64,000 bases of DNA from an uncultured bacterium (GCA_903928345.1 CAIYQO010000266.1:2029-66028); one strand, 5' to 3'; positions 14,281 through 58,000 are shown, counted from the stretch's first letter. Program-made: numbers and translations. Notes: generated by a model not told the origin, from the sequence alone.

Positions 14281-17200
14281 TTACTCGAAGAGGAACTCAC
14301 CCCAGTTGTTCGGCTCCATCTTCAGTTCATACACCTCGTCAGCGACGAGGCCGGTGGCCTGGTTGTTCCAGTAGGTGCGCAATACCGTGTCGGTGCCGGG
14401 GGCGTCGCCGTGGGTGGCCCCGATATCACCGGTGAGCTTCAGGCCGGAGCTGGGGGTCAGGCCGATGGCGCCGAGGGGCACGGCGGCTTCCACGGTGTAG
14501 CTCTTCCCGCGCGGATCGACCTTCACGCTGATCTTCGCGGCGTCGAGTACGATGACGCTCTGCATCTCATACCCGCCACGCACCACGCCCGAGTAGAACT
14601 TGCGCGGGTGCGCGTCCGCCGCCACGCGGCGATACACCACCGCGGTCGGTTTCCCCTGGAAGTTGCCGATGGACAGGCGCAGGTCGCCGAGGACCGCCTC
14701 GCCACGCTTGCGCGGCGCTTTCGGGTCGGTGCCGAGTTGGAAGTCCACCGTGTCGCCGGAGCAATACATCACCGCCGGTTCGGTCGCCCCGTTGACCCAC
14801 GGCGTATCGTCGTTGACCTTCCAGCCGAGGTAGAGGTTGGCGTCGTCGTAGGCGAGGGCGGCTTCGATGCGCGCGGCGGCGCTCTTCTCGAAGGCCAGCG
14901 GCTCCTTGGTGTTGAAGTCCTTGCGCATGTCGCCGGTGAAGGCCACGGTGGCCTTGCGCACGGTGGCGATGCGCGTGCCCACGCTCTGCTGCAACAGCTT
15001 CTCGCGGAAGCCGGCGGCGAGCTTCAGGTCGGTATCCTTCACGGTGAGCTTGCCGTTGCCGAGGCGTTGCACGGTCTCCAACCCGACGACCTTCATGTTG
15101 ATAAAGGCCGTTTTTCCCGCCTGCACGTAGAGCTGGCCGTCCTGCGTGACGCTGATGGAGCCGCCGAAGTCCTCCGCGCCCATGCCCGGGGGCACGCTGT
15201 CCATCACCGCGCCGGGCACGGCGGGGTTGGGCAAGTGGATCTTCATCGGGTCGCTCTCGAACAGCTTCGTCAGGTAGAACCCCTCGCCGGTGAGCAGGTG
15301 CCATTCGCCTTTGTCGGTGGGGATGGCAAAGATGTCGCCGATGGGGTCGGGCAGCTTGCCGGTGCCCACGATGTCATACGCGGCGCGGATCAGGCCGGCC
15401 GCCGGCGGGGGCGCCAGATGGCCGCCGTGCACGCCGACGTAGGTGTTCGGGTACGTCCATTTCAACTGCCCGGTGTTCACGTCGAAGCACTGGAAGTCGC
15501 TGTGGGCGGCGGCGTAGTGGCCGTTGTAGACCATCAGCGTGCCGTCTTCGTTGCCGCAACCGCGCTGGGCGCCCATGCCGCCGCGCGCCTGCACGTCGGC
15601 AGGGGCGGGCAGTTGTTTCTCCTGCGCCAGGTCGTACTCCGGCGCGCCGCAGGCCGTCCAGCCGGTGGGCGCGATGCGGTAGAAGCCGCCGTAGAAGGTG
15701 AGCGACTGCGTCATCGGCATGTACCAGCCGTTCACCCAGCCGCCCAGGTTCATCGGGAAGTCGTGCATTTCGTTCGGCTGGACCTGCTCGTCGCCGTTCT
15801 CGTCGGACCACACGCGGATGCCGGCGAGCTGGCCTTCACGTACCGACTCGCCCAGGTAGCTCTTCTCGTCCTTGCCGATGGCCAGCAGCTTGGTGCGCAG
15901 CTTCCACTGTCCGGCGGCGATGCGTTCATAAATCGACACGGGGTGCGAGCCGTGCCCGCCGTTGCCCACGGCGACGTAGAGCCGGTTGTCCTTCCCCAGG
16001 CCGAAGCGCGCGTTGCTCACGCCGCCGCGGTGGAAGACCGCCAGGCACGTCGCTTTGCCGGTGGTGGGATCCAGGTGCCACTCGCACCCCTGGCCGACCA
16101 TCGTCAGCGTGTCGAGGGGGTCGATGGCGCCACCGCCCGCGCCGTAATCGGTGGGGCCGAAGAATTCCTTCACGAAGGCGCCCGTTTTGGCGTCCCACAC
16201 GGAGATGCGCCGCGGCGTGTCGTCGTTTTCCGCCACCCAGAGCTTGCCCTGGACATCGACGCGCAGGCCGCTGATGAAGCGCATGCCGCCCTGTTCCCAC
16301 GGCCCGAGCAGCGCGCGCCCGCCGGTCTTACCGATGGTGCGCAGTGGCGTGCCGTCGGCGCCGAAGACCTTCACCTGGTTGTCGGGGTCGCCCACGCCGA
16401 CATAGAGCGCGCCGGCGGCGTCCACCGCCAGTGCGTTGGCGGCGGTGAGGCCGTCGACGACGGTGGCGGTTTTGTTATCGGCCAGATTTACGCGCAGCAC
16501 CTTGCCCCCCGCGGCGAGCACGTACAGCGCGCCGTCGGGGCCGATTTCCAGGTCGCCGGCGCCGTCCACAGGAATGGTGGTGAGCAGTTTGCCGGTGGCA
16601 ATATCGACCACGCCGACCACGTTGTCCCCCGCGCAACTGAGGAGCAGCTTGCCATTGACGGCGGTCATGCCGGTGAGCACCGGGGTGGCGCCGGCGGGGG
16701 TGACGTCCTTCAGCAGCGCGGTGATGTCCAGCGTGGCGCTCTCGGTGCCCGGCCAGGAGGAGTACGCGTCCTTCACGGCATCGAGCCGGTAGACGACGTT
16801 GTCGCCCTGCTGGCGGTCGTAGACGTAGAGGATGCCGCCGTCCACGGCGAGCAGCCGCGCGTTGCCGAAGCCGCCGCGCTTATGGCGCCACTTCACGTTG
16901 CCGTCCAGGTCGGTGCACACCACCGCCTGCCCGGCCTCCGCGCCGCTCCAACCCAGGAAGATCGACGTGCCGTCGCTGTCCACCGCCATCGGGTTGCCCT
17001 GGTCGCCGCCCCAGTTGCCGCCGGGGCTGTCGAAGGGCGCGCGGCCCCCGTTGTGCGCCCAGCCGACCAGCCGCAGGCCGATGTCGCCGTGGCGGATCGC
17101 TGACCAGGTATACGCGCCGGCGGGCACCACCTCGCCCGGCTGCATGTGGCTCATATTCGTCAGCCCGTCCCACGGCACGCTGTGCTTGCCCTTGGTGTAA

Positions 17201-18147
17201 AAGGCGGCGTTGAGCAGTTGTCGCACCACCTGGCCGTCGGCGTTCTTGATGTTCAGCGACACGTAGCCGTCTTCCGGCATGGTGAAGGGGATATCGGTGA
17301 AGCCGGCCATCTTCTTCTCTTCGAAGAGGCCGGTCCAATCGACCGCGGGGGTGCCTTTGTCCAGACGCACGGGGAACTCGCGGTTGTCGGCCAGGCGGAG
17401 CGGCTGCGGCTCGACGCCGTCTTTGGCGGCCAGGAAGCCGTAGCCCCAGCAGTTGACGGCGCGGAAGGTGAAGACGCGGTCGGGGGTGACGCCGGGGCGG
17501 AAGATGTCCTTCATGGTGATGCGGAAATGCGCGTCGGTGCAGAAGTTCGGCTCGGCGGAGATGACGATGCGCCCGCCCGTCTTCGGCGTAATGCCACCCT
17601 TGATGAGGGTCGTCCACGGCAGCGCGATCTCCTGCGTGTAGCCCTTGCCGTCGGCGTTCTTCAGGAAGGCCTGCTGGGCGCCCAACTTCTTCGCGTCGGG
17701 GGTGTTGATGCCGTCGCCTTTGTAGCATTGCAGCGCGACTACGTCCTTGGCATCGCGGTCACGCCAGGCGGTGAGCCAGCAGATGGATGGGTTGGCGTCG
17801 TCCGGGTTGACGATAAGGCGCAACTGCAGGCAGTCGCCGTTCCAGCCCATGTCGCCGGCGATGCTGCCGGGGTTGTTCATCGGCGTTTCGTCGACCCAGC
17901 GCGCCAGAATGTACAGGTTGTCCTTGTCATACTGGGCGTGCAGCCACACCGCCAGCTTGTCGCGCAAGTGCTCCACGTCGCTGCAGGTGAAGACCCCGCC
18001 GGAGAGATCCCAGTCGTCGGTCTTGCCGTCGATGACCATCTTCCCCGGCGTGGGGAGGACGCGGATGTTCAGGTTTTCCGTCTCCGTTGCCAGGACGGCG
18101 GTACCGAGCGCCAGCAACACGAGCGCAAGCAGGAAGAAGCGAGTCAT
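14281..18147 (-). CDS. giant secreted multidomain protein, type A (CBM9-like N-domain, FlgD-Ig-like, NHL/beta-propeller-like repeats, CBM9-like C-domain)
   Basis: 1288 aa. Signal peptide. IDGKTDDWDLSG motif (CBM9-like). WDGL..G..VP.GAYTW (FlgD-Ig-like). Repeated ALAVDAAGALYVG..DPDNQVKVF (NHL-like). Paralog of the ORFs at 28533 and 54257. Confidence 0.8.
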   Translation of the reverse strand: MTRFFLLALVLLALGTAVLATETENLNIRVLPTPGKMVIDGKTDDWDLSGGVFTCSDVEHLRDKLAVWLHAQYDKDNLYILARWVDETPMNNPGSIAGDMGWNGDCLQLRLIVNPDDANPSICWLTAWRDRDAKDVVALQCYKGDGINTPDAKKLGAQQAFLKNADGKGYTQEIALPWTTLIKGGITPKTGGRIVISAEPNFCTDAHFRITMKDIFRPGVTPDRVFTFRAVNCWGYGFLAAKDGVEPQPLRLADNREFPVRLDKGTPAVDWTGLFEEKKMAGFTDIPFTMPEDGYVSLNIKNADGQVVRQLLNAAFYTKGKHSVPWDGLTNMSHMQPGEVVPAGAYTWSAIRHGDIGLRLVGWAHNGGRAPFDSPGGNWGGDQGNPMAVDSDGTSIFLGWSGAEAGQAVVCTDLDGNVKWRHKRGGFGNARLLAVDGGILYVYDRQQGDNVVYRLDAVKDAYSSWPGTESATLDITALLKDVTPAGATPVLTGMTAVNGKLLLSCAGDNVVGVVDIATGKLLTTIPVDGAGDLEIGPDGALYVLAAGGKVLRVNLADNKTATVVDGLTAANALAVDAAGALYVGVGDPDNQVKVFGADGTPLRTIGKTGGRALLGPWEQGGMRFISGLRVDVQGKLWVAENDDTPRRISVWDAKTGAFVKEFFGPTDYGAGGGAIDPLDTLTMVGQGCEWHLDPTTGKATCLAVFHRGGVSNARFGLGKDNRLYVAVGNGGHGSHPVSIYERIAAGQWKLRTKLLAIGKDEKSYLGESVREGQLAGIRVWSDENGDEQVQPNEMHDFPMNLGGWVNGWYMPMTQSLTFYGGFYRIAPTGWTACGAPEYDLAQEKQLPAPADVQARGGMGAQRGCGNEDGTLMVYNGHYAAAHSDFQCFDVNTGQLKWTYPNTYVGVHGGHLAPPPAAGLIRAAYDIVGTGKLPDPIGDIFAIPTDKGEWHLLTGEGFYLTKLFESDPMKIHLPNPAVPGAVMDSVPPGMGAEDFGGSISVTQDGQLYVQAGKTAFINMKVVGLETVQRLGNGKLTVKDTDLKLAAGFREKLLQQSVGTRIATVRKATVAFTGDMRKDFNTKEPLAFEKSAAARIEAALAYDDANLYLGWKVNDDTPWVNGATEPAVMYCSGDTVDFQLGTDPKAPRKRGEAVLGDLRLSIGNFQGKPTAVVYRRVAADAHPRKFYSGVVRGGYEMQSVIVLDAAKISVKVDPRGKSYTVEAAVPLGAIGLTPSSGLKLTGDIGATHGDAPGTDTVLRTYWNNQATGLVADEVYELKMEPNNWGEFLFE

Positions 18148-18388: not shown

Positions 18389-20515
18389 ATGCCGCAATCC
18401 TCTCGCGTCCTCCTCCTGCTCATCGTCGTGCTGCTCGCCGCCGGCGCGTGCGCGGCGGAGACGCCGTTGAAGTATTCCGCCGGGTGGCTCGGGAACAGCT
18501 TTGCCAACCCGCAGTGGATTCAAAAGGACGGCCTGGGGCTGGCGGTGGGGGCGGACGGCGCCTGCTACCTCACCGCGTCGTGGGACGAAGTCGGCAAGGG
18601 GCTGGGTATCTATCGCGACGGCAACGCGGTCGGGATGTGCCAGGGCATCAGCGTCGGCGACGGCGCGGTGGCGGTGGACGACAAATACATCTATGGCGGC
18701 ACCTACCGCGACATCGCGGGCAAAGGGACGCATGGCATCGGGCGTTGGGGGCTGGACGGCTCGCCGGCACCGACCGCGGGGGGCTCGAACTTCCTGCCCA
18801 TCGGGGCGGCGTGGATGGCCGCCGCGACGGCGTACCAGGGCGAATTATTCGTCGGGGATACCGACGCGATTCGCGTCTACGACCGGGAGACGCTGGTGGA
18901 GAAGCGCCACTTCCCCTGCCCGCACCCGTTTCGGCTGGCGGTGGACCACACCGGGCTGCTGTGGGTGATCGGGTGCGTCGCGACCACCGAGGCGGGCATG
19001 CCGGCCACGCTGACGCAATACACCCGCGACGGGGCGCTCACCGGCGTGCGGATCGCCGATGTGGACGGCGCCACCGCGCTGGCGATCACCCCGACGGGGG
19101 GGCTGCTGGTGGCCGGGCCGCGGCAGCAGGTGCTGAAATACGACCTGTCAGGCCAGGCGCCTAAACTGGTCGGCACACTGGGCGTGGCGGGCGGCGTGTG
19201 GGCCGGCACGCCCGGCGCGATGGCACCGAACAAGCTGCTGGGGCTGATCGGCGTGGGGTGCGACGCGCTCGGAAATATCTACACGTTGGGGCGCGCCCCG
19301 GCGGTGGGCGGCGGCGTGGACTTGCGCAAGTTCAAGGCCGACGGCACCCTCATCTGGCAGCGCTTCAACACCGGCTTCACCGACTGCGCGGACGTGGACC
19401 CGGCGTCGGACGGCCTGGACGTCTACACCCGCGACGAGCACTTCGTTTTCGACGCCAAGAAGCCGCTCGGGGCGCAGTGGGTATGGAAGGGCTACACCCT
19501 CGACCCGCGCTATGACGACGGTCGCGCCGAGGGGCGCGCTTGCGGCGACAGCATGTTCAACTGGGGCTCGCCCCTCGTGCGGCGGCTGCAGGGGCGGCTG
19601 TACCTGTTCACGCGCCCGGGCAGCTACTTCGGCATCTTCCGCCAGGGGAAGGGCGAGGTGTTCCTCCCCAGCGGGCTCATCGGGCTCACGCCGACATGGC
19701 TTATCGTCGCCCCCGCCGACAACCGGCGCGACACCGTGTGGCCCCCGCAGCAACCCACCCCGCGCTCGCGGTGGAACTGGCGCGACGCCAACGGCGACGG
19801 CAAAATTCAGCCCGAGGAGATCACCAACTCCCCCAAGCTGCTGACCGAAGTGGAAGCGATCAACGGCTCCTGGGTGGATGACCAGGGGGATATCTGGCTG
19901 GCCGGCTCCTCGAGCGGCATCCGCTGCCTGTGGCACATGCCGCTGCTGGGCTTCGACGCGCAGCAGAACCCGATCTACACGTGGGAGAAGACGCAGCGCC
20001 TGCCCTTGCCCAAGGAGTTCACCGATTGCGGCCGCATCCAGTATGACGCGCGCACGGATACCATGTATCTCTCCGGCATGACCCCGGAGCACCCGAACGA
20101 CACGCACTGGGGGGACATCGGGCCGGTGATCGCGCGGTATGACCACTGGTCGAAACCGGAACGCACCCTGCGCTGGACAATTCAGGAGCCGGCCGGCCCG
20201 CCGAAGTCGGCGAACGGCGACGCCTTCTTCCCCGCGCTCGCCATCGCCGGCAATCGCGTCTTCGTGATGCAGCGCTACGGGGCGCGCATCTGGGTCTACG
20301 ACGCGGACAGCGGCGCCTACGCCGGCATGGTCACCACCACGCCGGAGGTCGGCCCCTCCGGCTGGTGCGATATGCCCTTCGGCCTGTCCGCCTTCGCGCG
20401 CAAAGACGGCAGCGTGTTGCTGCTGGCGGAAGACGACTACCGCCCGAAGGTGCGCACCTACCTGGTGCCGCCGCAGCCGCTGGACCCCAAGGCGGTGCGC
20501 CCGGCGGCGTGGTAA
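18389..20515 (+). CDS. large secreted beta-propeller-like protein, type B paralog
   Basis: 708 aa. Signal peptide. Shares GFDAQQNPIYTWEK and a C-terminal AEDDY module with 25884 and 45163. Divergent from type A gene 14281. Confidence 0.7.
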   Translation: MPQSSRVLLLLIVVLLAAGACAAETPLKYSAGWLGNSFANPQWIQKDGLGLAVGADGACYLTASWDEVGKGLGIYRDGNAVGMCQGISVGDGAVAVDDKYIYGGTYRDIAGKGTHGIGRWGLDGSPAPTAGGSNFLPIGAAWMAAATAYQGELFVGDTDAIRVYDRETLVEKRHFPCPHPFRLAVDHTGLLWVIGCVATTEAGMPATLTQYTRDGALTGVRIADVDGATALAITPTGGLLVAGPRQQVLKYDLSGQAPKLVGTLGVAGGVWAGTPGAMAPNKLLGLIGVGCDALGNIYTLGRAPAVGGGVDLRKFKADGTLIWQRFNTGFTDCADVDPASDGLDVYTRDEHFVFDAKKPLGAQWVWKGYTLDPRYDDGRAEGRACGDSMFNWGSPLVRRLQGRLYLFTRPGSYFGIFRQGKGEVFLPSGLIGLTPTWLIVAPADNRRDTVWPPQQPTPRSRWNWRDANGDGKIQPEEITNSPKLLTEVEAINGSWVDDQGDIWLAGSSSGIRCLWHMPLLGFDAQQNPIYTWEKTQRLPLPKEFTDCGRIQYDARTDTMYLSGMTPEHPNDTHWGDIGPVIARYDHWSKPERTLRWTIQEPAGPPKSANGDAFFPALAIAGNRVFVMQRYGARIWVYDADSGAYAGMVTTTPEVGPSGWCDMPFGLSAFARKDGSVLLLAEDDYRPKVRTYLVPPQPLDPKAVRPAAW

Positions 20516-20523: not shown

Positions 20524-21264
20524 TCATTCCCCCGCGCGCACCACTTCGGTGTAGTCATACACGCCGGTGATGCGCTGGCCGGCGGGCACGGTCAGGTATT
20601 CGGCCGCGGACCATTCGCCGTCGATGAGGCCGCGAATCAGGCGGATGTCGCCGTCCAGGCGGGTGCAGGCGCGGCCCTCGGCGGCCGCCTTCACGCGGAA
20701 CTCCTCGGCGTAGCCCAGGTGCGCGGTTTCGGGCAAGTCGATGAAGACGGCGGGGTGGCCTTCGGCGGGCTCGGGGTGCATCGTCTCCCACACATAGCGC
20801 GCATCCTCCTCGCCGTACTGCTCCACCAGCGCGGCGAAGGCATCGCCCACGAAGAGCTTGTTCTCGCCATCCTCGACGCGCAGGAAGTAATCACCGCGCT
20901 CCAGGTAGCCAGCAGAGCTGAAGGGTGTGCTGGGGTGGTCGCCGAAGTGTTCCACAAAGCGCTCCCGGGCCCCGAGCAATATAGTGCAGCAGTCGTGGGC
21001 GCGCGGCAACACCAGTGGCACGCGTCCCGCCTGCAGGCCGACCGTGGCATTGCCGCACACGCCGAAGAGGAGCAATATGGCGTCGTACGCCTTGCCGGCG
21101 GAGTCGGCGGCATCGATGCGCGCCTGCAGCGACGCGCGCAGCGTGTCGCTGTGCACGTGCTCGCCCAGCTCGGTGAATTCCACGTCGAAGACGTGCGGCG
21201 ACCGGGAAACGCACAGGCAGGCTTCCCGGAGAAAAACGTTGCAGGCAATCAGCTTCAACAGCAT
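20524..21264 (-). CDS. DUF1638-family protein
   Basis: 246 aa with LLLFGVCGN and AHDCCTILLG motifs typical of DUF1638. Confidence 0.6.
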   Translation of the reverse strand: MLLKLIACNVFLREACLCVSRSPHVFDVEFTELGEHVHSDTLRASLQARIDAADSAGKAYDAILLLFGVCGNATVGLQAGRVPLVLPRAHDCCTILLGARERFVEHFGDHPSTPFSSAGYLERGDYFLRVEDGENKLFVGDAFAALVEQYGEEDARYVWETMHPEPAEGHPAVFIDLPETAHLGYAEEFRVKAAAEGRACTRLDGDIRLIRGLIDGEWSAAEYLTVPAGQRITGVYDYTEVVRAGE

Positions 21265-21658: not shown

Positions 21659-23731
21659 GTGAACGCCATGTCCCGCGAGCATATCTGTCAGACCCTGAAA
21701 CCTTTCCCGATGGCCCCGTACGTCTTCATCACCGAAGAGACGACGGCGGACGATCTGGCGCGCTACTTCGCCGACATCAAGGCGTGCGGCTTCGACGCCG
21801 TGCGCACCGGCAACGCGCCGACCTACCTGGGTCCCGACGAGATCGACTACACGGTGAGCGACCTGTTCTTCCGGCTGGCGGAGGAGCACGGGCTGCTGCT
21901 CTTCCCGCACTTCCAGATGAGTTACTGCGGCTGGATGGGCGCGGCGCCGCACGCTATCGATCCCGTGCGCAACCTGCTGGACGAGCGCTACCATGCCCTG
22001 CTCGACGCCTACTTCACCGCCGTGGTGCGCCGCTACCGCGAACACCCCGCGCTGCTGGCGTGGATCGGCATCGGCGAGCCGGGCAGCTTTCCCGAGGCGC
22101 TGCTCGACGACCCGCAGGTGCGCGCCCTATACCGTGCCTGGCTGCAGGAACAGTACGGCTCGCTGCCGGCGCTGGAGCACGCGTGGGGATTCGGCAGCCG
22201 GTTGCCGTATGGCCACGAAGAGGTGACGGCGTGGGACGCCGGGGCGCACTGGGCCGGGCAGGTCTTCGAAAAGTACCGCCATCAGCGCGACTGGCTGCGC
22301 TTCCAGACGGAGTTCCTGCTGGAGCAGACGACGACCTGTGAACGGGTGACCATGCGCGAGGACGACCGACATCCTCTCCTCACCGGCATCCACAACGTGC
22401 TGGCGAACGCGGCGGCGAAGACGTGGGATTTCGGCCTGCAGGCGAGCCGCGCGGACGGGCTGATGTCCTCCATCCACGCGGGGTGGCACTCGGGACTCGG
22501 CGACTACGAATTCTTCCTGCCGCTGTATGTCCAGGCGCGCATGACGCGCGATTTTTGCAAGGACGGCTGGGCAATCGCCTACGAAACCACCGGCGGCCCG
22601 AACTTCCGCTCCGCCGACCGCGGCTACAACCTGCACCCGCGCGAGCGGTATCAGATGATGCTCGGGTACCTGGCCGCCGGGCTGCAAGGCGGCGGCTTCT
22701 GGACGTGGAACGCCCGCCTGACCGGCTACGAGGCGGGGGAATACGCGCTGACCACGCTGCAAGGCACGCCCGCCGCGCGGGCACGGCTGCTGGGCGACTT
22801 TGCCCGCCGCATGGCGCAGTGGCGGGAGGAGCTGTACGACGCGAAGCCCGAACGCCTCGCCGCGGTGCTCTACAGTTGGGAGAGCGAGGCCTTCTGCGCC
22901 TACGACCGGCTCACCCACGCGGAGTCCATGCAGCGCGACGCGGGCTCGCGCCACCGCCTGGGTGCCGCGCGCAGCCTGACGGACGCCAACATCCCGTGGG
23001 AGTTCGTCACCGACGCGGAGCTGTGCGACGGCACCGTGCACGCCTACCCGGTGCTCGTGATCCCCGGGATGCCGGTGGTGTCCGATGCCGCGCTGGCGGC
23101 GCTGGACGACTACGTCCGCGGCGGCGGCACGCTGATCGTCGATATGCCCTTCGCGGTCTACGATGAAAACGGCCGCATCCGCACCGCAGGCGCCGGGGGC
23201 GCGGTCGACCGCGTGCTGGGCGCCTACCTCGCCGACATCTATGACACCTTCAACGAGCCGATGGCGCTGGGCGCGCTGCCGGTGGAGGGCACCTTCGGCG
23301 AGTGGGTGCCGACGGCGGCCACCGTGCAGGCGACCTTCGCCGACGGACGCCCGGCGGTATTGGAGCACCGGCTGGGCGCGGGGCGTGCCGTGTGCTTCGC
23401 CTTCGAGGTGTGCGGCCGGAGCGCGTCGGCCGGCCAACCCGACTATGAACACCTGCTGGCGGAGACGGTGCTGGCGGGGCGCGCACACCCCTGGACGTGC
23501 CCCGACGCCGTGGCCTTCCGGCGGCAAGTGGGCGCGGTTGATTACTACTACCTGGTCAACCTCGGCGCGGCCCGCGACACGACCCTGCAGGTGCACGACG
23601 CGGCGTACCGCACCGTGCACGATGTCATGGCCGACGCCGCCCTCCCATACACGACGAACGACGAGGGGTGCGCGGTCCCCGTGCATCTGCCCGCGGGCAT
23701 GGGCGCCTGGCTGCGTTGCGAGCGCGGGTGA
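21659..23731 (+). CDS. glycoside hydrolase, GH42-like beta-galactosidase family (TIM barrel plus trimerisation-like middle domain)
   Basis: 690 aa. The middle domain YPVLVIPGMPVVSDAALAALDDYVRGGGTLI resembles the GH42 M-domain. The N-terminal TIM-barrel region is consistent. Confidence 0.55.
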   Translation: MNAMSREHICQTLKPFPMAPYVFITEETTADDLARYFADIKACGFDAVRTGNAPTYLGPDEIDYTVSDLFFRLAEEHGLLLFPHFQMSYCGWMGAAPHAIDPVRNLLDERYHALLDAYFTAVVRRYREHPALLAWIGIGEPGSFPEALLDDPQVRALYRAWLQEQYGSLPALEHAWGFGSRLPYGHEEVTAWDAGAHWAGQVFEKYRHQRDWLRFQTEFLLEQTTTCERVTMREDDRHPLLTGIHNVLANAAAKTWDFGLQASRADGLMSSIHAGWHSGLGDYEFFLPLYVQARMTRDFCKDGWAIAYETTGGPNFRSADRGYNLHPRERYQMMLGYLAAGLQGGGFWTWNARLTGYEAGEYALTTLQGTPAARARLLGDFARRMAQWREELYDAKPERLAAVLYSWESEAFCAYDRLTHAESMQRDAGSRHRLGAARSLTDANIPWEFVTDAELCDGTVHAYPVLVIPGMPVVSDAALAALDDYVRGGGTLIVDMPFAVYDENGRIRTAGAGGAVDRVLGAYLADIYDTFNEPMALGALPVEGTFGEWVPTAATVQATFADGRPAVLEHRLGAGRAVCFAFEVCGRSASAGQPDYEHLLAETVLAGRAHPWTCPDAVAFRRQVGAVDYYYLVNLGAARDTTLQVHDAAYRTVHDVMADAALPYTTNDEGCAVPVHLPAGMGAWLRCERG

Positions 23732-23738: not shown

Positions 23739-24740
23739 CTACGCCTCGTCGGTATAACGCAACAACACCTTGCCGGTTTGCCCCGCGGCGAAGCGCGCGT
23801 AGGCATCGGCGGCGTCGGCGAAGGGCAGGCGGTCGGTGATAAGGTCGTGCAGGCGCAGCCCGTCGCGGTACAGTTGCAGCATGGCGGGATATTCGCCGAA
23901 GTGATAGAACCACGCGCCGACGGCGGTAATGTCGCGGCGGATGAACTGCTCGCTGGGCGAGATGGGCAGCGCCCCCTGCTCGCCGTTGAAGACCACGGTG
24001 CCCGCGGTGCGCACGGCGGCGAAGCAGGCCAACGCGCTTTCCGGGCGCCCCGCCGCTTCGATGCAGACGTCCGCGCCGGTGTCGTCGGTCAGCGCGCGCA
24101 CGGCGGCCACGGGGTCGCCATCGTCGACCTGCACCACCGCCTGCGCCCCCAGGCGCCGCGCCAGCGCGAGGCGGGTGGCCGAGCGGTCCACCGCGATGAC
24201 GCGCCGCCCCAGGTGGGCCTGCAGCAGCACGCTGCCCAACCCCACCGGTCCCACGCCGAAGACCGCGACGGTACGCACGGAATCCGCGAGCTTCGTCGAG
24301 GTATGGTACGGCACGCCCAGCCCGTCGCCGGTGAGCAGCACGCCGGCCTCCCAGGCGACATCATCGGGCAACGGGTGGCAGGCGTTGGCGGCGGCAAGGA
24401 ACTGCTCCGCGTGCATATTGCCGTAGAAGCTGAAGCCCCGGCACCAGGTATACTGTCCCAGCGCGCAATAGGTGCAGTGCCCGCACCCCGCGATGGCGCT
24501 CACGCCCACACGCTGCCCCACCGTGAGGCCGGTCACCCCCGCGCCGAGGGCACGCACCCACCCCGCGGCTTCGTGCCCGTTGTTGCCGCCCGCCACGCCG
24601 CCGCTGCGATAGTCGTGCAATTCGCTGCCGCACAGCGCGGAGACCGCGGTCTGAATCACGACCTCACCCGGGCCGGCCACCGGCTCCGGCGCGTCGGCCA
24701 TTGTCACCCGGCTCTCGCCGTCGAGGATAAGGCGTTTCAT
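23739..24740 (-). CDS. zinc-dependent alcohol dehydrogenase (MDR family)
   Basis: MKRLILDG.., GHEAAGWV, CGHCTYC structural-Zn motif, and GVGPVGLG Rossmann. The ATG overlaps the TGA of the upstream gene (ATGA). Confidence 0.8.
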   Translation of the reverse strand: MKRLILDGESRVTMADAPEPVAGPGEVVIQTAVSALCGSELHDYRSGGVAGGNNGHEAAGWVRALGAGVTGLTVGQRVGVSAIAGCGHCTYCALGQYTWCRGFSFYGNMHAEQFLAAANACHPLPDDVAWEAGVLLTGDGLGVPYHTSTKLADSVRTVAVFGVGPVGLGSVLLQAHLGRRVIAVDRSATRLALARRLGAQAVVQVDDGDPVAAVRALTDDTGADVCIEAAGRPESALACFAAVRTAGTVVFNGEQGALPISPSEQFIRRDITAVGAWFYHFGEYPAMLQLYRDGLRLHDLITDRLPFADAADAYARFAAGQTGKVLLRYTDEA

Positions 24741-25729
24741 ACGCGAACTCCTAACATCGGCAGCGGGAATTCCCCCTGCACGTCGACCGGGCGGCGTTCC
24801 GCGACGGCGCGCCGCAGTGCCGCTTCGAATTGCAGCTCCACCACGCCGGCCAACCCCGGCACGGGCGGGGGCGCGTCGGCGCGAATGCTGTCGAGATACG
24901 CGCCCAGCGCCTGCTCGAAGGAGGCATCGTACTGGTGCCAGCGCGAATGGTTGGGGATGAGGGCGTGGGTTTCCGCGTAGCGGCTCCCGTTTTCGTAGAC
25001 TTCCAGCGTGCCGTCCAGATCGCGGAAGCGCAACATGCCGTGGGCAAAGCACAGCGTCATGTCGTACAGCGCCAGCGAGAAATCCGTGCCGCCGGTGCCG
25101 AGAATCGTGCCGGTGGCCCCCTGGACCAGCGTGAAGGCCGCCGCCACGTCGCCCGCCTGGCCGGCGTCGCCCGCCAGCGCGGTGATCGTCGCCGCCCGCC
25201 CGCCGAACAGGTGCAGCAGGTCGATGCAGTGGCTCCAGCAGGCGAAGTGCACCAGCAGCGTGGCCTGCTGCAAGGGGCCGAAGTTGCGCTCCGCCACAAT
25301 GCGCCGGGCGCGCTGCGACTGGGCGAAGAAACGGTAGTTGAAGACCATCGCCGTCTGCACGCCCGCCCCCTCCGCGCGCGCCAACAGCGCCGCGGCGCGG
25401 GTGAAATCGCCCTCGCACACCTGCGCCTGCCCATGTTGGGCGACGAGGGGTTTCTCGAAGAAGAGGCGCTTCACCGGCCCGGCGTCGAGCAGTGCGGTGG
25501 CCGCCGCGTCGCGGGTAGTCTCATTAGTGAGCAGCAGCACGGCATCCGGCGCGTCGTCCACCAGCGCGCGCAGGGAGTCGTAGACGCGCCCGCCGAAGTC
25601 GCGCGCGCAGGCCTCCGCCTTCTCCCGCGTGCGCGAGAAGTAGCTCAGCGTCACGTCCGCCTGCCCCGCGAGAAACGGGAGATAGTTGCCGCGGGCCACG
25701 GCGCCCGTGCCGACGATGGCGATCTTCAT
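24737..25729 (-). CDS. Gfo/Idh/MocA-family NAD(P)-dependent oxidoreductase
   Basis: MKIAIVGTGAVARGNYLPFL N-terminal Rossmann fold. 330 aa. Confidence 0.8.
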   Translation of the reverse strand: MKIAIVGTGAVARGNYLPFLAGQADVTLSYFSRTREKAEACARDFGGRVYDSLRALVDDAPDAVLLLTNETTRDAAATALLDAGPVKRLFFEKPLVAQHGQAQVCEGDFTRAAALLARAEGAGVQTAMVFNYRFFAQSQRARRIVAERNFGPLQQATLLVHFACWSHCIDLLHLFGGRAATITALAGDAGQAGDVAAAFTLVQGATGTILGTGGTDFSLALYDMTLCFAHGMLRFRDLDGTLEVYENGSRYAETHALIPNHSRWHQYDASFEQALGAYLDSIRADAPPPVPGLAGVVELQFEAALRRAVAERRPVDVQGEFPLPMLGVRV

Positions 25730-44392: not shown

Positions 44393-44451
44393 ACGTGTTC
44401 AATTCCCGGCTAAACGCCGACTTGCCGCCCGGCGTGCTATACTGAAACGAG

Positions 44452-45135
44452 ATGATGAGACACCGGCTGATCGCGGTAGGGGTGTTGCTGGCGCTGGCGC
44501 GGCTGTGCGCCGGGGCGACGGTGCTGCCGACCGTGCATGCGGCGGTAAAGCTGGTGGTGGACGGCGACGCGGGCGAGTGGGCCGCGCTGCCCGGCGTGCT
44601 CACACGGCAGTTGGGCGACAAGCCGGACGGCCCCACCGTGGCGATGACCTGGGACGGCGCCAACCTCGACCTCGCCTTCACCGTGCCGCAGCCCAAGGAT
44701 ACCGTGACGCGCGTGCCCATCAGCCTGCCCTTCAGCGACGGCCTGTGGCGGCGCGGCGACCGGGTGGAGTGGTACGTCACCGTCGGCGACGACACCTTCC
44801 ACTACGTCTTCATGCCCACCGGCGACTGCTTCCGCATCATCGTGAAGAAGGGCGGTTTCGAGGAAGGGCACGACGCGGACTTCGCCTACAAAGCGCGCAT
44901 CCTGCCCGACCGCTGGTGCGGCGAGGTGCAGATCGGCCTCGAAGACAGCCCCTTCCCGCTCCCCAAGCGCCACCCGGACTGGGCGATGCGCTTCGTGTAT
45001 ACCAACATCGCCGCAAAGACCACCCTCGCCTGGCCGGTGCCGAAGGCCGACGCCGATCCGCCACCGAGCGAAACGGTCCACTTCTCCCCCGACCCGCCGG
45101 CGAAACCCGTGCCCCCGGCGCCCGCGGGGAAATGA
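44452..45135 (+). CDS. secreted stand-alone CBM9-like domain protein
   Basis: Signal peptide. VVDGDAGEWAALPG motif. 227 aa. Immediately upstream of type-B gene 45163. Confidence 0.6.
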   Translation: MMRHRLIAVGVLLALARLCAGATVLPTVHAAVKLVVDGDAGEWAALPGVLTRQLGDKPDGPTVAMTWDGANLDLAFTVPQPKDTVTRVPISLPFSDGLWRRGDRVEWYVTVGDDTFHYVFMPTGDCFRIIVKKGGFEEGHDADFAYKARILPDRWCGEVQIGLEDSPFPLPKRHPDWAMRFVYTNIAAKTTLAWPVPKADADPPPSETVHFSPDPPAKPVPPAPAGK

Positions 45136-45162
45136 CGTTCTGCCGACAATACGAGGTGCCCC

Positions 45163-48100: not shown

Positions 48101-48279
48101 GCTACCAACCGACGGGCGAGCAATGGGCCGGGCAGGTCTTCAAACACCCGAAGACGGGCCGCGTCTACATCGTCGCCCAGCCCAACGCCCAACCGCTCCT
48201 GCTGCTCTACGAAGTGACGGGCACCGACAAGGTGCAGTACTTCACCGGCACCTGCCAACTGCCGGCGGGCGGGAAGTAA
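45163..48279 (+). CDS. giant secreted protein, type B paralog with N-terminal CBM9-like domain
   Basis: 1038 aa. ITVDGNLTDAEWGGD (CBM9-like). ALWDGKDDAGHAVPPGTYKLKG (FlgD-Ig-like). NHL-like repeats (LAFDAVGNLVVVDTGNLRIQVF). FQGFDKTGNPIYTWEK. Confidence 0.75.
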   Translation: MHITLRLFVLAGLCALALFPCRVWAEDDTAVMPIYPVAGPITVDGNLTDAEWGGDRLAWPIDIPEFGTVAVYWLRYDQHTLYGAFKVTDSSPAKNTRLMHDRWEGDQLEICLCTDPANHPQHSSFGDYDHQVFLGRDGEGAVNAYVNINDKLSGTLPVGSHVAITPWADGKGYNLEFSLPWASLNRPADFAPKTGLQIGWQVQVDLSTPDGERLAYTAKWWPHGIHFQHPNQWAWARFLAPGEERPAPPRPAAAIATSGSEVQFPTPTDGLVSVNITDDKGALVRRLVIGQHLNKGTNAALWDGKDDAGHAVPPGTYKLKGSVANLGVKYLTTLGNTSPEPYGGLRRSAGGEYRHGCWSDVITNPDGTFYVLNWGGEGPPALQQVDPKQHFRVIWGGTTTTSGNEFQEYGARDGNTLYFTHERRVGAAQRISTLSRMNAVTHKGERFTSGEWTVPLGEPRTGQWAPDADVCGLGAHGGKVYVPCRYENRVDVYDGTSGDKVGTITNPAFTGPMDIAFAADGTMFVVDKTSVYTYDTAQKCTGTITTGLTQGAAVTAEPTGGVYVTDAGTNQVKAFTLAGKPLKTIGPKGGAASTLAKYGIDGVGGKIHDDWFYHPAGLAFDAVGNLVVVDTGNLRIQVFNPAGKCVKSLLAAMYANLCIDPKHPETVFEFDAQGVMLAHHMNWQTGASRIDGEYTLNARASFVKFHHGTPYFFGGDCSVWTIDKGKARMRTALYRYAYPSYEQFAPVLENGKVVRKNYQQISGNKIPISLPWEFRDLNGDGLPQLSEYRCYTKEQARPWWGYNGGDFYVDDDWNMYLGNWNWQDGHSYVVKIPFQGFDKTGNPIYTWEKSEMKFSSANDPAWNSDNFKAPQMSGIHLGADGSVYLALNDRPGFEPLDNRLRKYNPDGTRAWSICHGTRGFWHKPGEELTWITDMGGPIDGLLVGIEETGSFEFFNPDGFYIGTALQPSDMTPDAYGTDVRYQPTGEQWAGQVFKHPKTGRVYIVAQPNAQPLLLLYEVTGTDKVQYFTGTCQLPAGGK

Positions 48280-49737: not shown

Positions 49738-50988
49738 ATGGACCGGCGCGTTATGCTCTTACTCCTGCTCCTCGCCCTCCCGGCGGCCCTGCCCGCCGCC
49801 TCCCCCGCACGCCTGCGCGCGATGCTGGCGAGTTCCGACCCCCACGTGCGCCTGCAAGCCGTGACGGTGCTGACGCACCAACGCGTCCCCCATACGCGGT
49901 GGCGCTTGGCGAAATTACTGGGTGACGAAGACCCGGCCATCGAACGCGCGGCGTTGCATGCCTATGTATTTCAGGGGGGATCGCGGATTGCGGCGCTGAT
50001 GCAATTGATGGTCGATCATCCCTGCACGGATTACATTAAAGCCGCGCGACTACGCAGCGACGCGAAATGGGCACTGGCGCACCTGCGAAACCCGAAACTC
50101 ATCCCCGAGATGCTCGATCGCATTGGCCTTTGCTATCTTTCGAGCGGACCAGAGATGTATTTCAATGATGATGGCAGTAAGGATCTTCGCACCAGTATTG
50201 TCTCGATGGGCGCAACGGCAATCCCGGCATTATGCCGCGCGATGAAAGAGCCGGATCGCTTTAAGCGCTTTATCGGTGTGGATATTTACACGACGCTCGC
50301 CGGCCACGACCTTGGCGCCTTGCTGGCTATTTACAACGATACCAGCTTCGCTTTTGACGACGTTCGCGTGGCGTTGCTGACCGCCATCGATGCGACGCAC
50401 GACGCGCGAGGGGTCGATGTCGTCCTCATCGCGCTCGACGACCCGTCGGATGACGTGAAGACATTTGCCGCCCGTCTGGCCGCCCCCTGGTATGCCGGAC
50501 CTAACAAGGCTCGTTTACGCCGCTTTGCCGTAGAACACTCCGCGCTGGCCATCCCGATTCTGCGGCAAATGGCGGATGCCCATGATCCGGATGCGACCCG
50601 GTTGTTGGTTTCAGTGTTATGTCAGGATAATGAGTCGAGTGTAACTAATGCCGCGTATACCCTCCATGATATTTACGACAATCATGAAGAAAGCTTCCTG
50701 CAAATGGCTATCGATGCTGGTGCCCCCCAAATGCACCTGTTAAAGATATATCTAAATTTCTGGCACGGTCCGAATCCCGTTGTCCCGAGCCCGTTACCCG
50801 ATGATGACCTCCTCCCCATGTTCCGACAGCATCAAGTAGCTGCGCCGCCACGACCCGCGCCAGCCCCCGATGCTTTCGAGCAACAATACCACTGGCTGGC
50901 GCGCACCGACCGGCGGATGGATAGGGAGTATCACGCAGACACGCTGAACGAACGATTCATCCCCTATTTTCGTCCAATGAACTTCTGA
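49738..50988 (+). CDS. HEAT-repeat (PBS-lyase-like) secreted protein
   Basis: Start MDRRVMLLLLLLALPAALPAASP. Repeated DP.VR..A...L HEAT-like units. About 53% GC in the gene body. Confidence 0.55.
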   Translation: MDRRVMLLLLLLALPAALPAASPARLRAMLASSDPHVRLQAVTVLTHQRVPHTRWRLAKLLGDEDPAIERAALHAYVFQGGSRIAALMQLMVDHPCTDYIKAARLRSDAKWALAHLRNPKLIPEMLDRIGLCYLSSGPEMYFNDDGSKDLRTSIVSMGATAIPALCRAMKEPDRFKRFIGVDIYTTLAGHDLGALLAIYNDTSFAFDDVRVALLTAIDATHDARGVDVVLIALDDPSDDVKTFAARLAAPWYAGPNKARLRRFAVEHSALAIPILRQMADAHDPDATRLLVSVLCQDNESSVTNAAYTLHDIYDNHEESFLQMAIDAGAPQMHLLKIYLNFWHGPNPVVPSPLPDDDLLPMFRQHQVAAPPRPAPAPDAFEQQYHWLARTDRRMDREYHADTLNERFIPYFRPMNF

Positions 50989-51049
50989 CCAAACACCACC
51001 GGGCGCCCTCCCGGGCGCCCGGCGGTGTTTTGCGGAATAACGGCGTGCC

Positions 51050-52252
51050 TTACATCGTCGATGCCGAGCCTTTGATACTGGCCTGGGCGAGGCGGCGGAT
51101 CATCTGGCGCATTTCGGTGGGGTTGCCGGCGTAGGCGATGGCGCTATTTTCGCTGATGGAGCCGTCGCGGAAGTGGTTGAGCAGCGACATATTCATCGAC
51201 TGCATGCCCCAGTAGGCGCCCTCGGTGATGGCTTGCGGCACGTTGCCGGCGCGGCCCTCTTCGATGAGTTTGGCGATGGTGGGGGTGTTGATCATCACCT
51301 CGATGCCGCAGCGGCGCCCCTTGCCGTCCACCGTAGGCACCAACTTTTGCGAGCAGACGCCCAGCAGGGTGGCGGACAGGCGCAGACAGATCTGCGGCTT
51401 CTCGTGCGGCGGGAACATGTTGACGATGCGTTCGATGGTTTCCGCGGCGCTGTTGGTGTGCAGGGTGGAGTAGACCAGGTGGCCGGTTTCCGCCGCGGTC
51501 ATCGCCACGGCCATCGTTTCCACGTCGCGCATCTCACCGACGAGGATGACGTCCGGCGCTTGGCGGAGCACGGCGCGCAGGGCGTTGCCGAAGTTGAGGG
51601 TGTCCAGCCCGATCTCACGCTGGCTGATGATGGACAGTTTGTCGCGGTGGGCGAACTCGATCGGGTCCTCGATGGTGATGATGTTGGTGCGGCGGTTGGT
51701 GTTGATCAGGTCGATCATGGCCGCCAGGGTGGTGGACTTGCCGGAGCCCGTCGGGCCGGTGACGATGCACATGCCCTTCTTGTGCGTGACCAGCGAGGCC
51801 AGCACCTTGGGCAGCCCGAGTTCTTCCAGCGTGGGGATTTCCAACGGAATGAGGCGCATCACGCTCGCCATCCCGCCGCGCTGCTTGTAGATGTTGACGC
51901 GGAAGCGGATGACATCGGGGATTTCCAACGCGGTGTCGATCTCCGGGTTCTTTTTGAAGCGTTCGCGCTGCTCCTCGTTCATCACCGAGTAGAAGAAGAT
52001 CTCTTCCATCTGCTTCATGGTCAGCGGCTCGATGTCCAACTGCGCGATGCGGCCCGCGAGGCGGAGGCACGGCGGCGAACCGACCTTCCAAAAGATGTCC
52101 GACGCGCGCTCTTCCACCGCCTGCAGACAAATGGCGTCGAAAAACGCGCGGGGATTCGTGGCCAACAGGTCCTGCAGCTCGCCTTCGGAGAGCTTGGGAC
52201 TTACGACTTCGCGAATCTCGGTGAAGAGTTCGTTGAGACTACCTTCGATCAT
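51050..52252 (-). CDS. pilT: type IV pilus retraction ATPase PilT/PilU family
   Basis: Walker A GPTGSGKST, Asp box, His box (TLHTNSAAETIERI), AIRNLIRE-like motif. Confidence 0.85.
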   Translation of the reverse strand: MIEGSLNELFTEIREVVSPKLSEGELQDLLATNPRAFFDAICLQAVEERASDIFWKVGSPPCLRLAGRIAQLDIEPLTMKQMEEIFFYSVMNEEQRERFKKNPEIDTALEIPDVIRFRVNIYKQRGGMASVMRLIPLEIPTLEELGLPKVLASLVTHKKGMCIVTGPTGSGKSTTLAAMIDLINTNRRTNIITIEDPIEFAHRDKLSIISQREIGLDTLNFGNALRAVLRQAPDVILVGEMRDVETMAVAMTAAETGHLVYSTLHTNSAAETIERIVNMFPPHEKPQICLRLSATLLGVCSQKLVPTVDGKGRRCGIEVMINTPTIAKLIEEGRAGNVPQAITEGAYWGMQSMNMSLLNHFRDGSISENSAIAYAGNPTEMRQMIRRLAQASIKGSASTM

Positions 52253-57200: not shown

Positions 57201-58000
57201 AGGTTGCCCGTCTTCGCGAAGGCGATCTTCCCCCAGCAGGCGGAACTCTGGAAGGTGAAACCGGGGCCGGCCATCACGTCATACAACCACCCGCCGCCCG
57301 CGGAGAGGCCGTCGGGTGTGCTGAAGTTGAGCTGCACGGTGCCGGGCACCAGATCGCCGCCGACGGGGATATGCTTCGCGCCCAGCGTGCTCCACGGGAT
57401 GCGGTATTCGAAGGTGTAGCCCTTGCCGTCCGGCTTGAGCAGGTACGCCGCCTGGTAGAGGTCGTGCGGCACGATGCCGAAAGGCGCCCACGCGGGCCGC
57501 CCCGGCAGGTAGTTCATGCCGGTCTGCACTTCCAGCACGGGCTCCTTGCGGTCGGTGTAGTACCACAGCGTGAAGTGCGCCATCTGGTCGTTGGGCACCG
57601 GATTAAACGTACCCTGCGTCACCGGAAAGCCTTGCGTGGGGTCGAGCACCATGCGGAACTGGCAGGAGTCGCCGTTCCATCCCTTGTCGCCGTTCACTTG
57701 CGGGTCGTTGCGGTTCATCAGCGGCGAGCCGTCGCGCACGTCGCCGGAGAGGTAGACGGCGTCGGCGTCGTACATCATGGCGAACTTCGCGCTGATCTGA
57801 TCGGCGGTCTCCGACACGATATACATGTACAACTGGCCGGATAAATCCCAGTCGTCCAGCTTGCCGTCGATCACCACCTTGCCCGGCACCGGCACGGCGA
57901 AGAGCTTCTTATGCTTCCCCCGTCCGCTGTCCGCCGACGCCGCCAGCGCCAGCAACAGGGCAACGAACAGCACGAGAAAACGCGACAGGGGGATACGCAT
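54257..58000 (-). CDS. giant secreted multidomain protein, type A paralog
   Basis: 1247 aa. Signal peptide. IDGKLDDWDLSG. TVAWDGLDDAGKPVPAGSYTWKG. NHL-like LAVDAAGAIYVANRGKLQNVSVF. C-terminal CBM9-like domain. Confidence 0.8.
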   Translation of the reverse strand: MRIPLSRFLVLFVALLLALAASADSGRGKHKKLFAVPVPGKVVIDGKLDDWDLSGQLYMYIVSETADQISAKFAMMYDADAVYLSGDVRDGSPLMNRNDPQVNGDKGWNGDSCQFRMVLDPTQGFPVTQGTFNPVPNDQMAHFTLWYYTDRKEPVLEVQTGMNYLPGRPAWAPFGIVPHDLYQAAYLLKPDGKGYTFEYRIPWSTLGAKHIPVGGDLVPGTVQLNFSTPDGLSAGGGWLYDVMAGPGFTFQSSACWGKIAFAKTGNLPHEMVEDATPPVPPTPLTFGYDVPADGEVTVQLWSDAGMAVRTLVASAPRKAGHDTVAWDGLDDAGKPVPAGSYTWKGLIHQPLTTKFKLSVHNSGNPPYKTDDNTGGWGGDHGVPECAAAAGNDLLLGWTYCESGWGIIRVDANGKKKWGSKHNAEDLACDGPRFFVRGDNGSEGEHSVKVFDMADARPLNWGNGKPALAAPDGGDAKTNVATGLAYAAGTVYVAWGARNLVAAYDAVSGDLKATWPVPAPGRLAVHPDGRLLVISGGAVLALRDGKATPCVTTHLDAPVSLAVDAAGAIYVANRGKLQNVSVFTAVGKYRRSIGTKGGRPRLGTFSGTGMLEPGGIAVDAQHRLWVAENLDEPRRVSVWDTRKGAIVRDFFGGSNYSTFVWMDPQHADTVYCHGTEWKIDLDKGTWSPVSTCWRSSDPNSPAVPHDLHVITAKNGRQYAWGSLHAKGTVLFMRDKDVFKPYLFYLRSTNGHSLTPWPAYPFMNDIKKYPNGTYIWSDTNRDGIMQDSEMTMIGDDRKAAWNFYPPQWMDANLDLWANGRVYRCLGFDPDGRPRYDFTKPETLAVSNTGGLWTDPRDGTVYTSSPGSTPGLARWSPDGKLRWGYTGTVDWHAAINMPPVTAGKLWGPTMPLGVAGDYTGIATYFGPFHLFTRDGLYVGMVMRDGRLGGGLGADIEACENFVGQLVQPVGSQRYFLLAGDQDGRVTEIRGLDTVQRLPGGMYTHTDADVQRCVQAQAAYAAQLTRTARFEIGRGGRAGLEAAKEVHKVVDATRDFTVRATYDATNLYVQYTVRSPYALANSSADPRLLFKGGNAIDLQFAADPAADPTRKTPAVGDVRLVVTRQDGKPFAVLYRPKVQGFAGDPIVLKSPTGQEAFDAITVASDVKLEYRAGQEEFTAVVTVPLALLGWTPQPGSAVRMDAGYIFAKNAQGTQAALRAYWMNNSFSANVVDDVPNESRLEPANWGTAAVE

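Follow-up and report, generated by a model that had tools for sequence, protein, structure and literature searches.

Which function is served by a set of very large exported proteins occupying nearly a third of one stretch of DNA from an uncultured bacterium? The stretch (GCA_903928345.1, CAIYQO010000266.1, positions 2029-66028; 64,000 nucleotides, hereafter the window) had been read from its sequence alone as carrying a seven-member paralogous family of secreted CBM9-like, FlgD-Ig-like and NHL-propeller proteins, divided into a type A, a type B and one free-standing domain. The present analysis indicates that the six large proteins are built on one common core, which includes a second propeller of apparently new sequence type. 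Our preferred reading, to which we give a probability of roughly 40%, is that these exported proteins act on complex glycans and that their core, a putative new carbohydrate-active module, is probably catalytic. The seven open reading frames (ORFs), labelled here A1 to A3, B1 to B3 and C, are as follows.

14281-18147, minus strand: A1, 1288 aa; signal peptide, CBM9-like domain, FlgD-Ig domain, NHL propeller, second propeller, long helix and CBM9-like domain; A1-like clade
28533-32351, plus strand: A2, 1272 aa; same architecture as A1; A2-like clade; 51% identical to A1 over its full length; CBM9_1 at 38.0 bits
54257-58000, minus strand: A3, 1247 aa; same architecture as A1; divergent third clade; FlgD_ig, CBM9_1 and NHL all above threshold
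18389-20515, plus strand: B1, 708 aa; signal peptide and two propellers, without Ig or CBM9-like domain
25884-28250, plus strand: B2, 788 aa; signal peptide, FlgD-Ig domain, NHL propeller and second propeller, without CBM9-like domain
45163-48279, plus strand: B3, 1038 aa; signal peptide, CBM9-like domain, FlgD-Ig domain, NHL propeller and second propeller; intermediate between types A and B
44452-45135, plus strand: C, 227 aa; small exported protein, distantly CBM9-like, of weak family membership

All seven ORFs are present where they had been placed, and their combined length of 19,725 bp represents 30.8% of the window, as against the 30% or so first announced. The guanine-plus-cytosine (GC) content of the window is about 66%, and that of the third codon positions of the seven ORFs about 0.9. 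With the starts chosen here, A1 and B2 have lengths identical to those of database proteins from one contig.

BLASTP comparisons confirm that the type A proteins are homologous along their whole length: besides the A1/A2 pair, A3 gives full-length matches of 28% identity with both A1 and A2 (E 1e-106 to 1e-108). Over their last 250 aa, A1 and A2 reach 55% identity, slightly less than the 60% estimated before. The alignment of B3 with the A proteins starts at residue 1 and extends to about residue 600-1000 (E 1e-24 to 1e-33); with A3 specifically, it covers residues 1-996 (E 2e-33). Within type B, the matches are B1/B2 (E 5e-27, residues 51-699 of B1 on 121-778 of B2), B2/B3 (E 6e-19) and B1/B3 (E 2e-11). 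The six large proteins are one superfamily of Sec-exported soluble proteins.

The relationship between the two types becomes clearer when profiles are compared. A profile of 34 A proteins and a profile of 37 B proteins are aligned by hhalign over 654 columns (A 290-1011, B 37-761; 99.9%, E 8.7e-37). Judged by this alignment, types A and B have in common a single core, some 700 aa long and composed of an Ig domain (lost in B1), an NHL propeller and a second propeller, to which type A adds a CBM9-like domain at both ends and B3 one at its N-terminus only. The A/B typology of the sequence-only reading is therefore better replaced by a single common core, with or without CBM9-like ends. In particular, the GFDAQGNP module, believed to be a C-terminal module specific to type B, corresponds to the second propeller, which type A also has: within this propeller, GFDAQGNPxYxW in type B is matched by G[WYF]TACGAPxYD in type A. 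The AEDDY motif, given as another mark of the same module, is absent from B3.

The domains of the core and its additions are illustrated by A1, all of them encoded on the minus strand.

17383-18084, minus strand: N-terminal CBM9-like beta-sandwich, aa 22-255
17056-17298, minus strand: FlgD-Ig-like domain, aa ~284-364; FlgD_ig at 21.8 bits (below 27), with profile matches to the FlgD structures 7eh9 and 7bhq
16153-17055, minus strand: propeller 1, six-bladed and of NHL type, aa ~365-665
15040-16110, minus strand: propeller 2, aa ~680-1036; all-beta, of high predicted local confidence (pLDDT), related by hhalign to propeller 2 of B2, aa 420-788
14284-14961, minus strand: C-terminal CBM9-like domain, aa 1063-1288; CBM9_1 at 18.9 bits, aligned with the N-terminal domain by hhalign

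Hits in Pfam above the gathering thresholds (CBM9_1, PF06452, 23.4 bits; FlgD_ig, PF13860, 27; NHL, 20; SGL, PF08450, 26.3) back the CBM9, FlgD-Ig and NHL assignments that had been guessed. CBM9_1 exceeds its threshold in A2 (38.0 bits at the N-terminus, 28.3 at the C-terminus), A3 (28.3) and B3 (28.2), and falls below it at the N-terminus of A1 (16.7) and at the C-termini of A1 (18.9) and A3 (16.0). These domains have the CBM9 beta-sandwich fold, and their profile matches include the CBM9s of xylanases. The C-terminal 230 residues or so of type A are homologous to the N-terminal CBM9-like domain (hhalign 96.8%, E 2.6e-10), and the N-terminus of B3 matches the N-terminal A profile at 98.2%. 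The ligand residues of CBM9-2 are the stacking aromatics Trp71 and Trp175 together with the polar Glu77 and others. In the alignment of hidden Markov models (HMMs), a W, F or Y and a nearly invariant Q87 lie opposite the W and the E of the 1i82 motif PWEQDSVE, the region of the second Trp falling outside this alignment. CBM9 binds chain ends.

FlgD_ig is above threshold in B2 (46.9 bits), B3 (42.7) and A3 (33.2); the Ig domain of A2 is detectable solely through homology to A1, and B1 has neither an Ig domain nor the WDG...PAG.Y motif. NHL is above threshold in A3, B2 and B3 (37.1 bits in the latter), and propeller 1 is a six-bladed NHL propeller. B1 has no hit in Pfam or NCBIfam, the whole NCBIfam scan having returned no more than ScyE/ScyF and FlgD hits below threshold, a consequence of NHL and Ig similarity. 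Similarly, sequence searches of the PDB, with single proteins and with profiles, gave only FlgD-Ig, NHL-type propeller and CBM9 matches. The layout proposed for type A is therefore right for the CBM9-like, FlgD-Ig, NHL and C-terminal CBM9-like domains, which Pfam and hhalign recover, but it overlooked the second propeller of about 350 aa. That of type B holds for the FlgD-Ig domain and the propeller of B2 and B3, but not for B1, which is devoid of FlgD-Ig, nor for the N-terminus of B3, which is CBM9-like.

The position of ORF C is different. It has no BLASTP match among the other six proteins and no Pfam hit, and only five relatives were found among 1.84 billion representative proteins. CBM9_1 is above threshold in 2 of these 5 relatives, and the small C-family profile weakly matches the A N-terminal domain (hhalign 72%, E 3.4e-5). 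The closest homolog of C (59% identity) is not located beside a B3-like gene. ORF C is best described, from these profile matches, as a distant free-standing CBM9-like protein rather than as a proven paralog. The earlier description of C as a free-standing CBM9-like domain can be kept in this distant sense, through its two CBM9_1-bearing relatives, but not on BLAST or Pfam evidence of its own, and the proposed family of seven paralogs is reduced to six demonstrable ones.

Propeller 2 gave no Pfam hit and no PDB relative in sequence and profile searches, and on this basis it is a sequence type not seen before. In A1, it contains the motifs GWTACGAPEYD, VGVHGGH, GEWH and GAEDFGGS, and an EF-hand-like loop, WSDENGDEQVQPNE, at aa 780. 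This loop, W-x-D-x-N-x-D-x3-Q-x(1-2)-[DE], is retained in all 34 A-family sequences. In B1, the loop found at aa 466, DANGDGKIQPEEI, is of the canonical EF-hand type; the canonical EF-hand pattern of PROSITE is matched in B1 and A3, and the loop is degenerate in the B2 clade. Numerous charged, His, Tyr and Trp residues of the propellers are invariant; among the charged ones, seven are common to A and B. The shared positions (A1/B2) are E404/E137, R454/R194, D631/D382, R647/R400, R742/R493, W780-D782/W537-D539, Y838/Y610 and D993/D739. H907, H910, H950 and E992 are invariant or nearly so in type A only, within a loop that is missing from type B.

The predicted models reach a predicted TM score (pTM) of 0.84 (CBM9-flanked architecture) and 0.90. 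The mean pairwise identity per domain in the A family ranges from 0.49 to 0.61, the CBM9-like ends and the Ig domain being as conserved as the propellers. Since the domains are equally conserved and the pTM is high, the models suggest that they pack as one rigid multi-domain body, rather than as a catalytic module with loosely attached binding modules.

As had been proposed, the proteins are secreted: all seven begin with a single hydrophobic, signal-like segment and contain no further membrane segment, the maximum 19-residue hydropathy outside the signal peptide being at most 1.5, and an AxA-type signal peptide is kept in the family consensus. C-terminal sorting signals of the type IX secretion system (T9SS), PEP-CTERM/exosortase or sortase type, which the sequence-only reading suggested looking for, are all absent. 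No LPXTG is present in the proteins and no PEP in their last 60 aa, there is no hydrophobic C-terminal tail, and the C-terminus of type A is the CBM9-like domain itself.

The family extends far beyond the window. A1 has more than 680 homologous 90% clusters, of which the best 120 are 50-96% identical to it; all but two of these 120, the partial sequences P0006 (926 aa) and P0095 (1162 aa), cover 98% or more of A1, with lengths of 1262-1374 aa. Those A homologs that carry a name are annotated as hypothetical, as 'PQQ-binding-like beta-propeller repeat protein', or as BamB or YncE. When one genome per species was scanned, 191 A relatives were recovered, the best 80 of which come from metagenome-assembled genomes (MAGs) labelled Planctomycetota, Lentisphaerota, Verrucomicrobiota, Kiritimatiellota and Armatimonadota and, singly, Anaerolineales and Bifidobacteriales. 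The A family as a whole shows 45-78% identity over about 1,290 aa in at least five phyla, with a fixed length. It comprises A1-like, A2-like and divergent A3-like clades, a 49% relative of A3 being found in locus L080. Several genomes carry 2-4 A-type copies, so that the paralog expansion suspected from the window is real. B2 has 71 homologous clusters, some of them fused to PA14 or InlB B-repeat domains, and B homologs are named 'sugar lactone lactonase YvrE' by their sources. As the best named hits of the ComM-like housekeeping protein of the window are only Armatimonadota MAGs (at most 78% identity), the host is probably an Armatimonadota bacterium, and the family appears, from its distribution, to have moved between phyla. 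The A homolog of one Armatimonadota MAG (L006, 10001-10720) is interrupted by an in-frame stop within the first 720 nt, due either to a pseudogene or to an assembly error.

We then considered the genes surrounding the homologs, in 79 A loci (109 immediate neighbours) and about 70 metagenome B loci (120 neighbours). GDSL/SGNH hydrolases make up 18 of the 109 A neighbours, the remainder being scattered. In 15 of the 79 loci, a GDSL/SGNH esterase of about 420 aa lies directly upstream of an A2-like gene, on the same strand. This pair occurs in MAGs of Planctomycetota, Chthoniobacterales and Lentisphaerales, the flanks being otherwise different, and in two cases (L054 and L070) a regulator with GntR and sugar-binding domains directly precedes the esterase. 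No SGNH gene is present in the window. Near A1-like genes, four loci contain a GH101C/CBM35-like protein of 637-749 aa with an unannotated N-terminal part of 440 residues; its gene is adjacent to the A1-like gene in L001, L012 and L017 and several kb upstream in L024. In Verrucomicrobiaceae bacterium 227 (CP144259), a cultured carrier of the family, the A homolog has an upstream gene that had been considered as a B homolog and in fact encodes such a GH101C-like protein.

Esterase-A2-like pair: loci L021, L044, L053-L055, L057, L060, L061, L066, L068, L070, L075, L077, L081 and L082
GH101C/CBM35-like gene: L001, 7730-9979; L012, 13990-16068; L017, 5095-7008 and 15903-18404; L024, 3472-5388

B homologs are found in operons with GH127, with GH4 and a sulfatase, or with GH95, GH2 and GH130, and one locus (L086) has the order divergent GntR regulator, SASA esterase, B homolog. 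The glycan-related genes near family members include GH127, GH95, GH2, GH4, GH116, sulfatase, fucosidase, GH35 and GH42-like genes. Pseudopilin-like genes were detected by tblastn in 9 A loci and in L002/L003, and N_methyl in 6 of the 109 A neighbours. The latter locus (L002/L003, 1-14918, Lentisphaerae) carries on one strand two pseudopilin-like genes, the genes of a 1130-aa B-like protein and of a 966-aa B homolog, those of a 979-aa and a 709-aa protein without Pfam hits, GH127 and a GntR/sugar-binding regulator.

No recurrent partner of the B family was found, no family exceeding 3 of the 120 neighbours. A two-component A/B system was also rejected: when all window proteins were compared by tblastn to 82 loci, the B-like hits fell nearly all inside A genes. 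The genes beside the B2 ortholog (81% identity) and beside the C homolog (59%) also differ from those of the window. The A/B pairs seen here (A1/B1, B2/A2 and C/B3) are thus a local arrangement and not a conserved system, since they are not kept in the A and B loci examined. From the initial proposal of an uncharacterised glycan-binding, adhesion or polysaccharide-processing system, what survives is a set of uncharacterised exported proteins with carbohydrate-binding-type and propeller domains, often in a context of glycan catabolism, but not the idea of a conserved seven-member system.

What could these proteins do? A role on complex glycans outside the cytoplasm is the most likely, given the way the domains are combined, the presence of CBM9-type domains and of an export signal, and neighbours that are frequently glycan-related. 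We propose that the proteins would act on complex, often O-acetylated, glycans: the CBM9-like domains would hold the glycan, and E404, R454, D631, R647, R742, Y838 and D993, with H907, H910, H950 and E992 in type A, would bind the chain, which the same conserved propeller residues would probably also cleave or modify. In the A2-like clade, the core would work directly after a dedicated SGNH esterase removing acetyl groups. A catalytic core is favoured because of the strong conservation across phyla and of the invariant charged, His and Tyr residues of the propellers, and because the esterase-A pair, preceded by a regulator in L054 and L070, holds no other depolymerase. Propeller enzymes paired with SGNH esterases have precedents, namely the PL11 rhamnogalacturonan lyase with CE12 and the GH33 sialidase with sialate O-acetylesterase. 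A more detailed version, in which the core would be a lyase or hydrolase with a Glu/Asp/Arg/Tyr set and, in type A, a His-rich and possibly metal-binding loop, horizontally transferred among Armatimonadota and the PVC phyla (Planctomycetota, Verrucomicrobiota, Lentisphaerota and Kiritimatiellota) and SGNH-coupled in one clade, is proposed still more tentatively. Several points weigh against catalysis. No catalytic motif had been recognised in the sequence-only reading, and Pfam, NCBIfam, PDB profile and motif searches detected neither a catalytic motif of any known family nor a known enzyme family. In structure searches, the matches were all generic propellers, six-bladed or tandem, many of which are non-enzymes. 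The nearest Ig-plus-NHL-like precedents in glycan loci (3tc9 and 3hrp) are annotated as nutrient-binding. Unrelated housekeeping genes account for most neighbours of the A and B homologs, and the B family is without any recurrent partner. Finally, the His-rich loop of type A is missing in type B, so that a common active site is at best putative. With regard to known propeller enzymes, no sequence or fold similarity to PL11, PL22, PL24, PL25, PL42, GH74 or GH145 was detectable, and a sialidase/GH33 propeller was rejected, as neither the Asp-box (S-x-D-x-G-x-x-W) nor the FRIP motif is present.

Proteins capturing glycans without catalysis are an explanation that we consider nearly as likely as the preferred one. 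The CBM9-like ends and the propeller faces would then bind polysaccharide and pass it to enzymes, pseudopilin-like fibres or transporters, and the proteins would be functional analogues of the Bacteroidota surface glycan-binding proteins. Besides the missing catalytic signature and the 'nutrient-binding' Ig-plus-propeller proteins of Bacteroides, capture would be consistent with the recovery by Foldseek of the two-propeller heparin-sensing domain of BT4663 and with the recurrence nearby of N_methyl/DUF1559 pseudopilin-like genes, while adjoining real enzymes (esterase, GH101C-like, GH127) could supply the chemistry. However, binding proteins usually diverge fast, whereas the orthologs are here 60-78% identical across phyla, with invariant His/Glu/Asp/Arg/Tyr motifs, and any module consisting of just a regulator, an esterase and an A-type gene would be left without a depolymerase. 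A ligand other than polysaccharide, bound by a propeller enzyme or receptor with either lactonase or lyase chemistry of the SMP-30/gluconolactonase/PAL type, directed at small sugar lactones or peptides, or a binding of cell-wall peptides or proteins similar to that of the PknD sensor and of eukaryotic NHL domains, seems improbable. SMP-30/gluconolactonase/LRE-like lactonases are characterised by a metal-binding Glu/Asn/Asn/Asp set in the central tunnel. The SGL match of B2 (30.9 vs 26.3 bits), the YvrE lactonase names of B homologs, and the presence of GFO/MocA and Zn-dependent alcohol dehydrogenase genes near B2 and of GFO/MocA or aldo-keto reductase genes near a B homolog would speak for such a ligand, as would the Amidase_2 gene upstream of C and B3. 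Yet SGL is matched in B2 only and partially (profile positions 92-216 of 246), two CBM9-like domains and a second propeller would be left unexplained, and signal peptides direct the proteins outside the cytoplasm, where sugar lactones would not be expected. As for an extracellular redox enzyme resembling the fungal AA8-AA12 proteins, with a cytochrome of the DOMON/CBM9 superfamily feeding a sugar dehydrogenase propeller of the pyrroloquinoline quinone (PQQ) type, it is highly improbable. CBM9 and haem-binding DOMON domains do belong to one superfamily, and weak EB_dh (19 bits) and PQQ_2 (21.1 bits) hits, like the database name 'PQQ-binding-like', hint in this direction. But both hits are below threshold (33.3 and 27.6 bits, respectively), PQQ_2 without a significant stretch, the NCBIfam PQQ_ABC_repeats score is 15.5 for a threshold of 287, and the fold of propeller 1 is nearest to NHL domains and not to PQQ enzymes. 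The CBM9-like domains also lack an invariant haem-ligating His or Met: a partly conserved H (26/34) is replaced in A2 and A3, and an M (28/34) in A1. Membership of the PQQ dehydrogenases and of the haem-DOMON proteins was rejected on these HMM scores and ligand positions.

Compared to known systems, secreted propeller proteins with carbohydrate-binding-type domains are a known kind, but the combination found here differs. The CBM9 modules of GH10 xylanases (Thermotoga maritima Xyn10A CBM9-2, 1i82; 7nwn) are here represented by two copies flanking a non-GH10 core; unlike those of xylanases, the A-family copies are as conserved as the core and, according to the model (pTM 0.84), apparently rigidly packed rather than mobile appendages. 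Relatives combining Ig and NHL-type domains include the filamin-NHL part of TRIM71 (6fpt), the PknD sensor of Mycobacterium tuberculosis (1rwi) and the Bacteroides glycan-locus proteins 3hrp and 3tc9 ('auxiliary nutrient binding protein'). They cover at most about 250-280 of the 790-1290 residues of the family, which adds to them a second propeller unrelated in sequence and the CBM9-like ends. The GH74 xyloglucanases and the periplasmic sensor domains of the hybrid two-component systems BT4663 and BT4673, the latter two in the Foldseek list with E of about 1e-11, resemble the family in being exported tandem propellers of a glycan-degrading bacterium. No solved structure spans the whole architecture, which is not described in the open-access literature searched, nor in Pfam, NCBIfam or the PDB. 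The component domains are known; in these sources, however, neither the way they are combined, nor the second propeller, nor the family itself is described.

In the window itself, the family genes are interspersed with the following genes, identified by Pfam.

20524-21264, minus strand: DUF1638 gene, between B1 and the GH42-like gene
21659-23731, plus strand: GH42-like glycosidase, between B1 and B2
~23739-24740, minus strand: Zn-dependent alcohol/sugar dehydrogenase, between B1 and B2
24737-25729, minus strand: GFO/IDH/MocA oxidoreductase, between B1 and B2
33299-34453, plus strand: pseudopilin-like protein with N_methyl, DUF1559 and Laminin_G_3, downstream of A2
41308-43566, plus strand: GH35/GLMA_2nd glycosidase, upstream of C and B3
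43595-44392, plus strand: Amidase_2 protein (N-acetylmuramoyl-L-alanine amidase type), upstream of C and B3

The enzymes encoded between B1 and B2 may be functionally linked to the family, as their adjacency would suggest. The GH35/GLMA_2nd, Amidase_2, C and B3 genes form an operon-like run on the plus strand (41308-48279) with gaps of 27-60 bp, a spacing from which we infer that they belong to one operon. With a glucosaminidase-like enzyme encoded alongside a muramoyl amidase, the run could hint at a substrate of the amino-sugar or cell-wall glycan type. A URO-D-like gene is found in a B-homolog operon (L084, 5420-6541). DUF1638 and URO-D-like genes are usually accessories of corrinoid methyltransferase systems, and their vicinity hints at a demethylation of O-methylated sugars. 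A3 is adjoined by a class II aldolase gene. An ORF directly upstream of A3 (58365-59222, minus strand), with a Zn_ribbon_15 hit only, lies in the second of two patches of lower GC content (50001-52000, 0.597; 58001-60000, 0.584; vs about 0.66). Elsewhere in the window, a gene for an SNF-family sodium symporter is followed by three genes without Pfam match, encoding 284, 316 and 280 aa (34579-39080, plus strand), the first and third products being rich in hydrophobic stretches and the middle one only near its ends. A 391-aa protein with ten WG_beta_rep repeats (E 2e-121) is encoded at 5199-6374 on the minus strand.

Finally, these results concern the Armatimonadota and the PVC phyla, which have a major but poorly understood part in the degradation of complex glycans in soils, lakes, digesters and guts. 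Much of the secretome of these bacteria is unannotated. The family described here is a large one, numbering hundreds of 90% clusters, and its conservation is unusually high among exported proteins. If its core is catalytic, it would constitute a new enzyme family, for which the paired SGNH esterase hints at an acetylated substrate; with a core restricted to binding, the family would be the first defined type of glycan-capture protein for Armatimonadota and PVC bacteria. In either case, the family offers a well-delimited target for expression and structure work.

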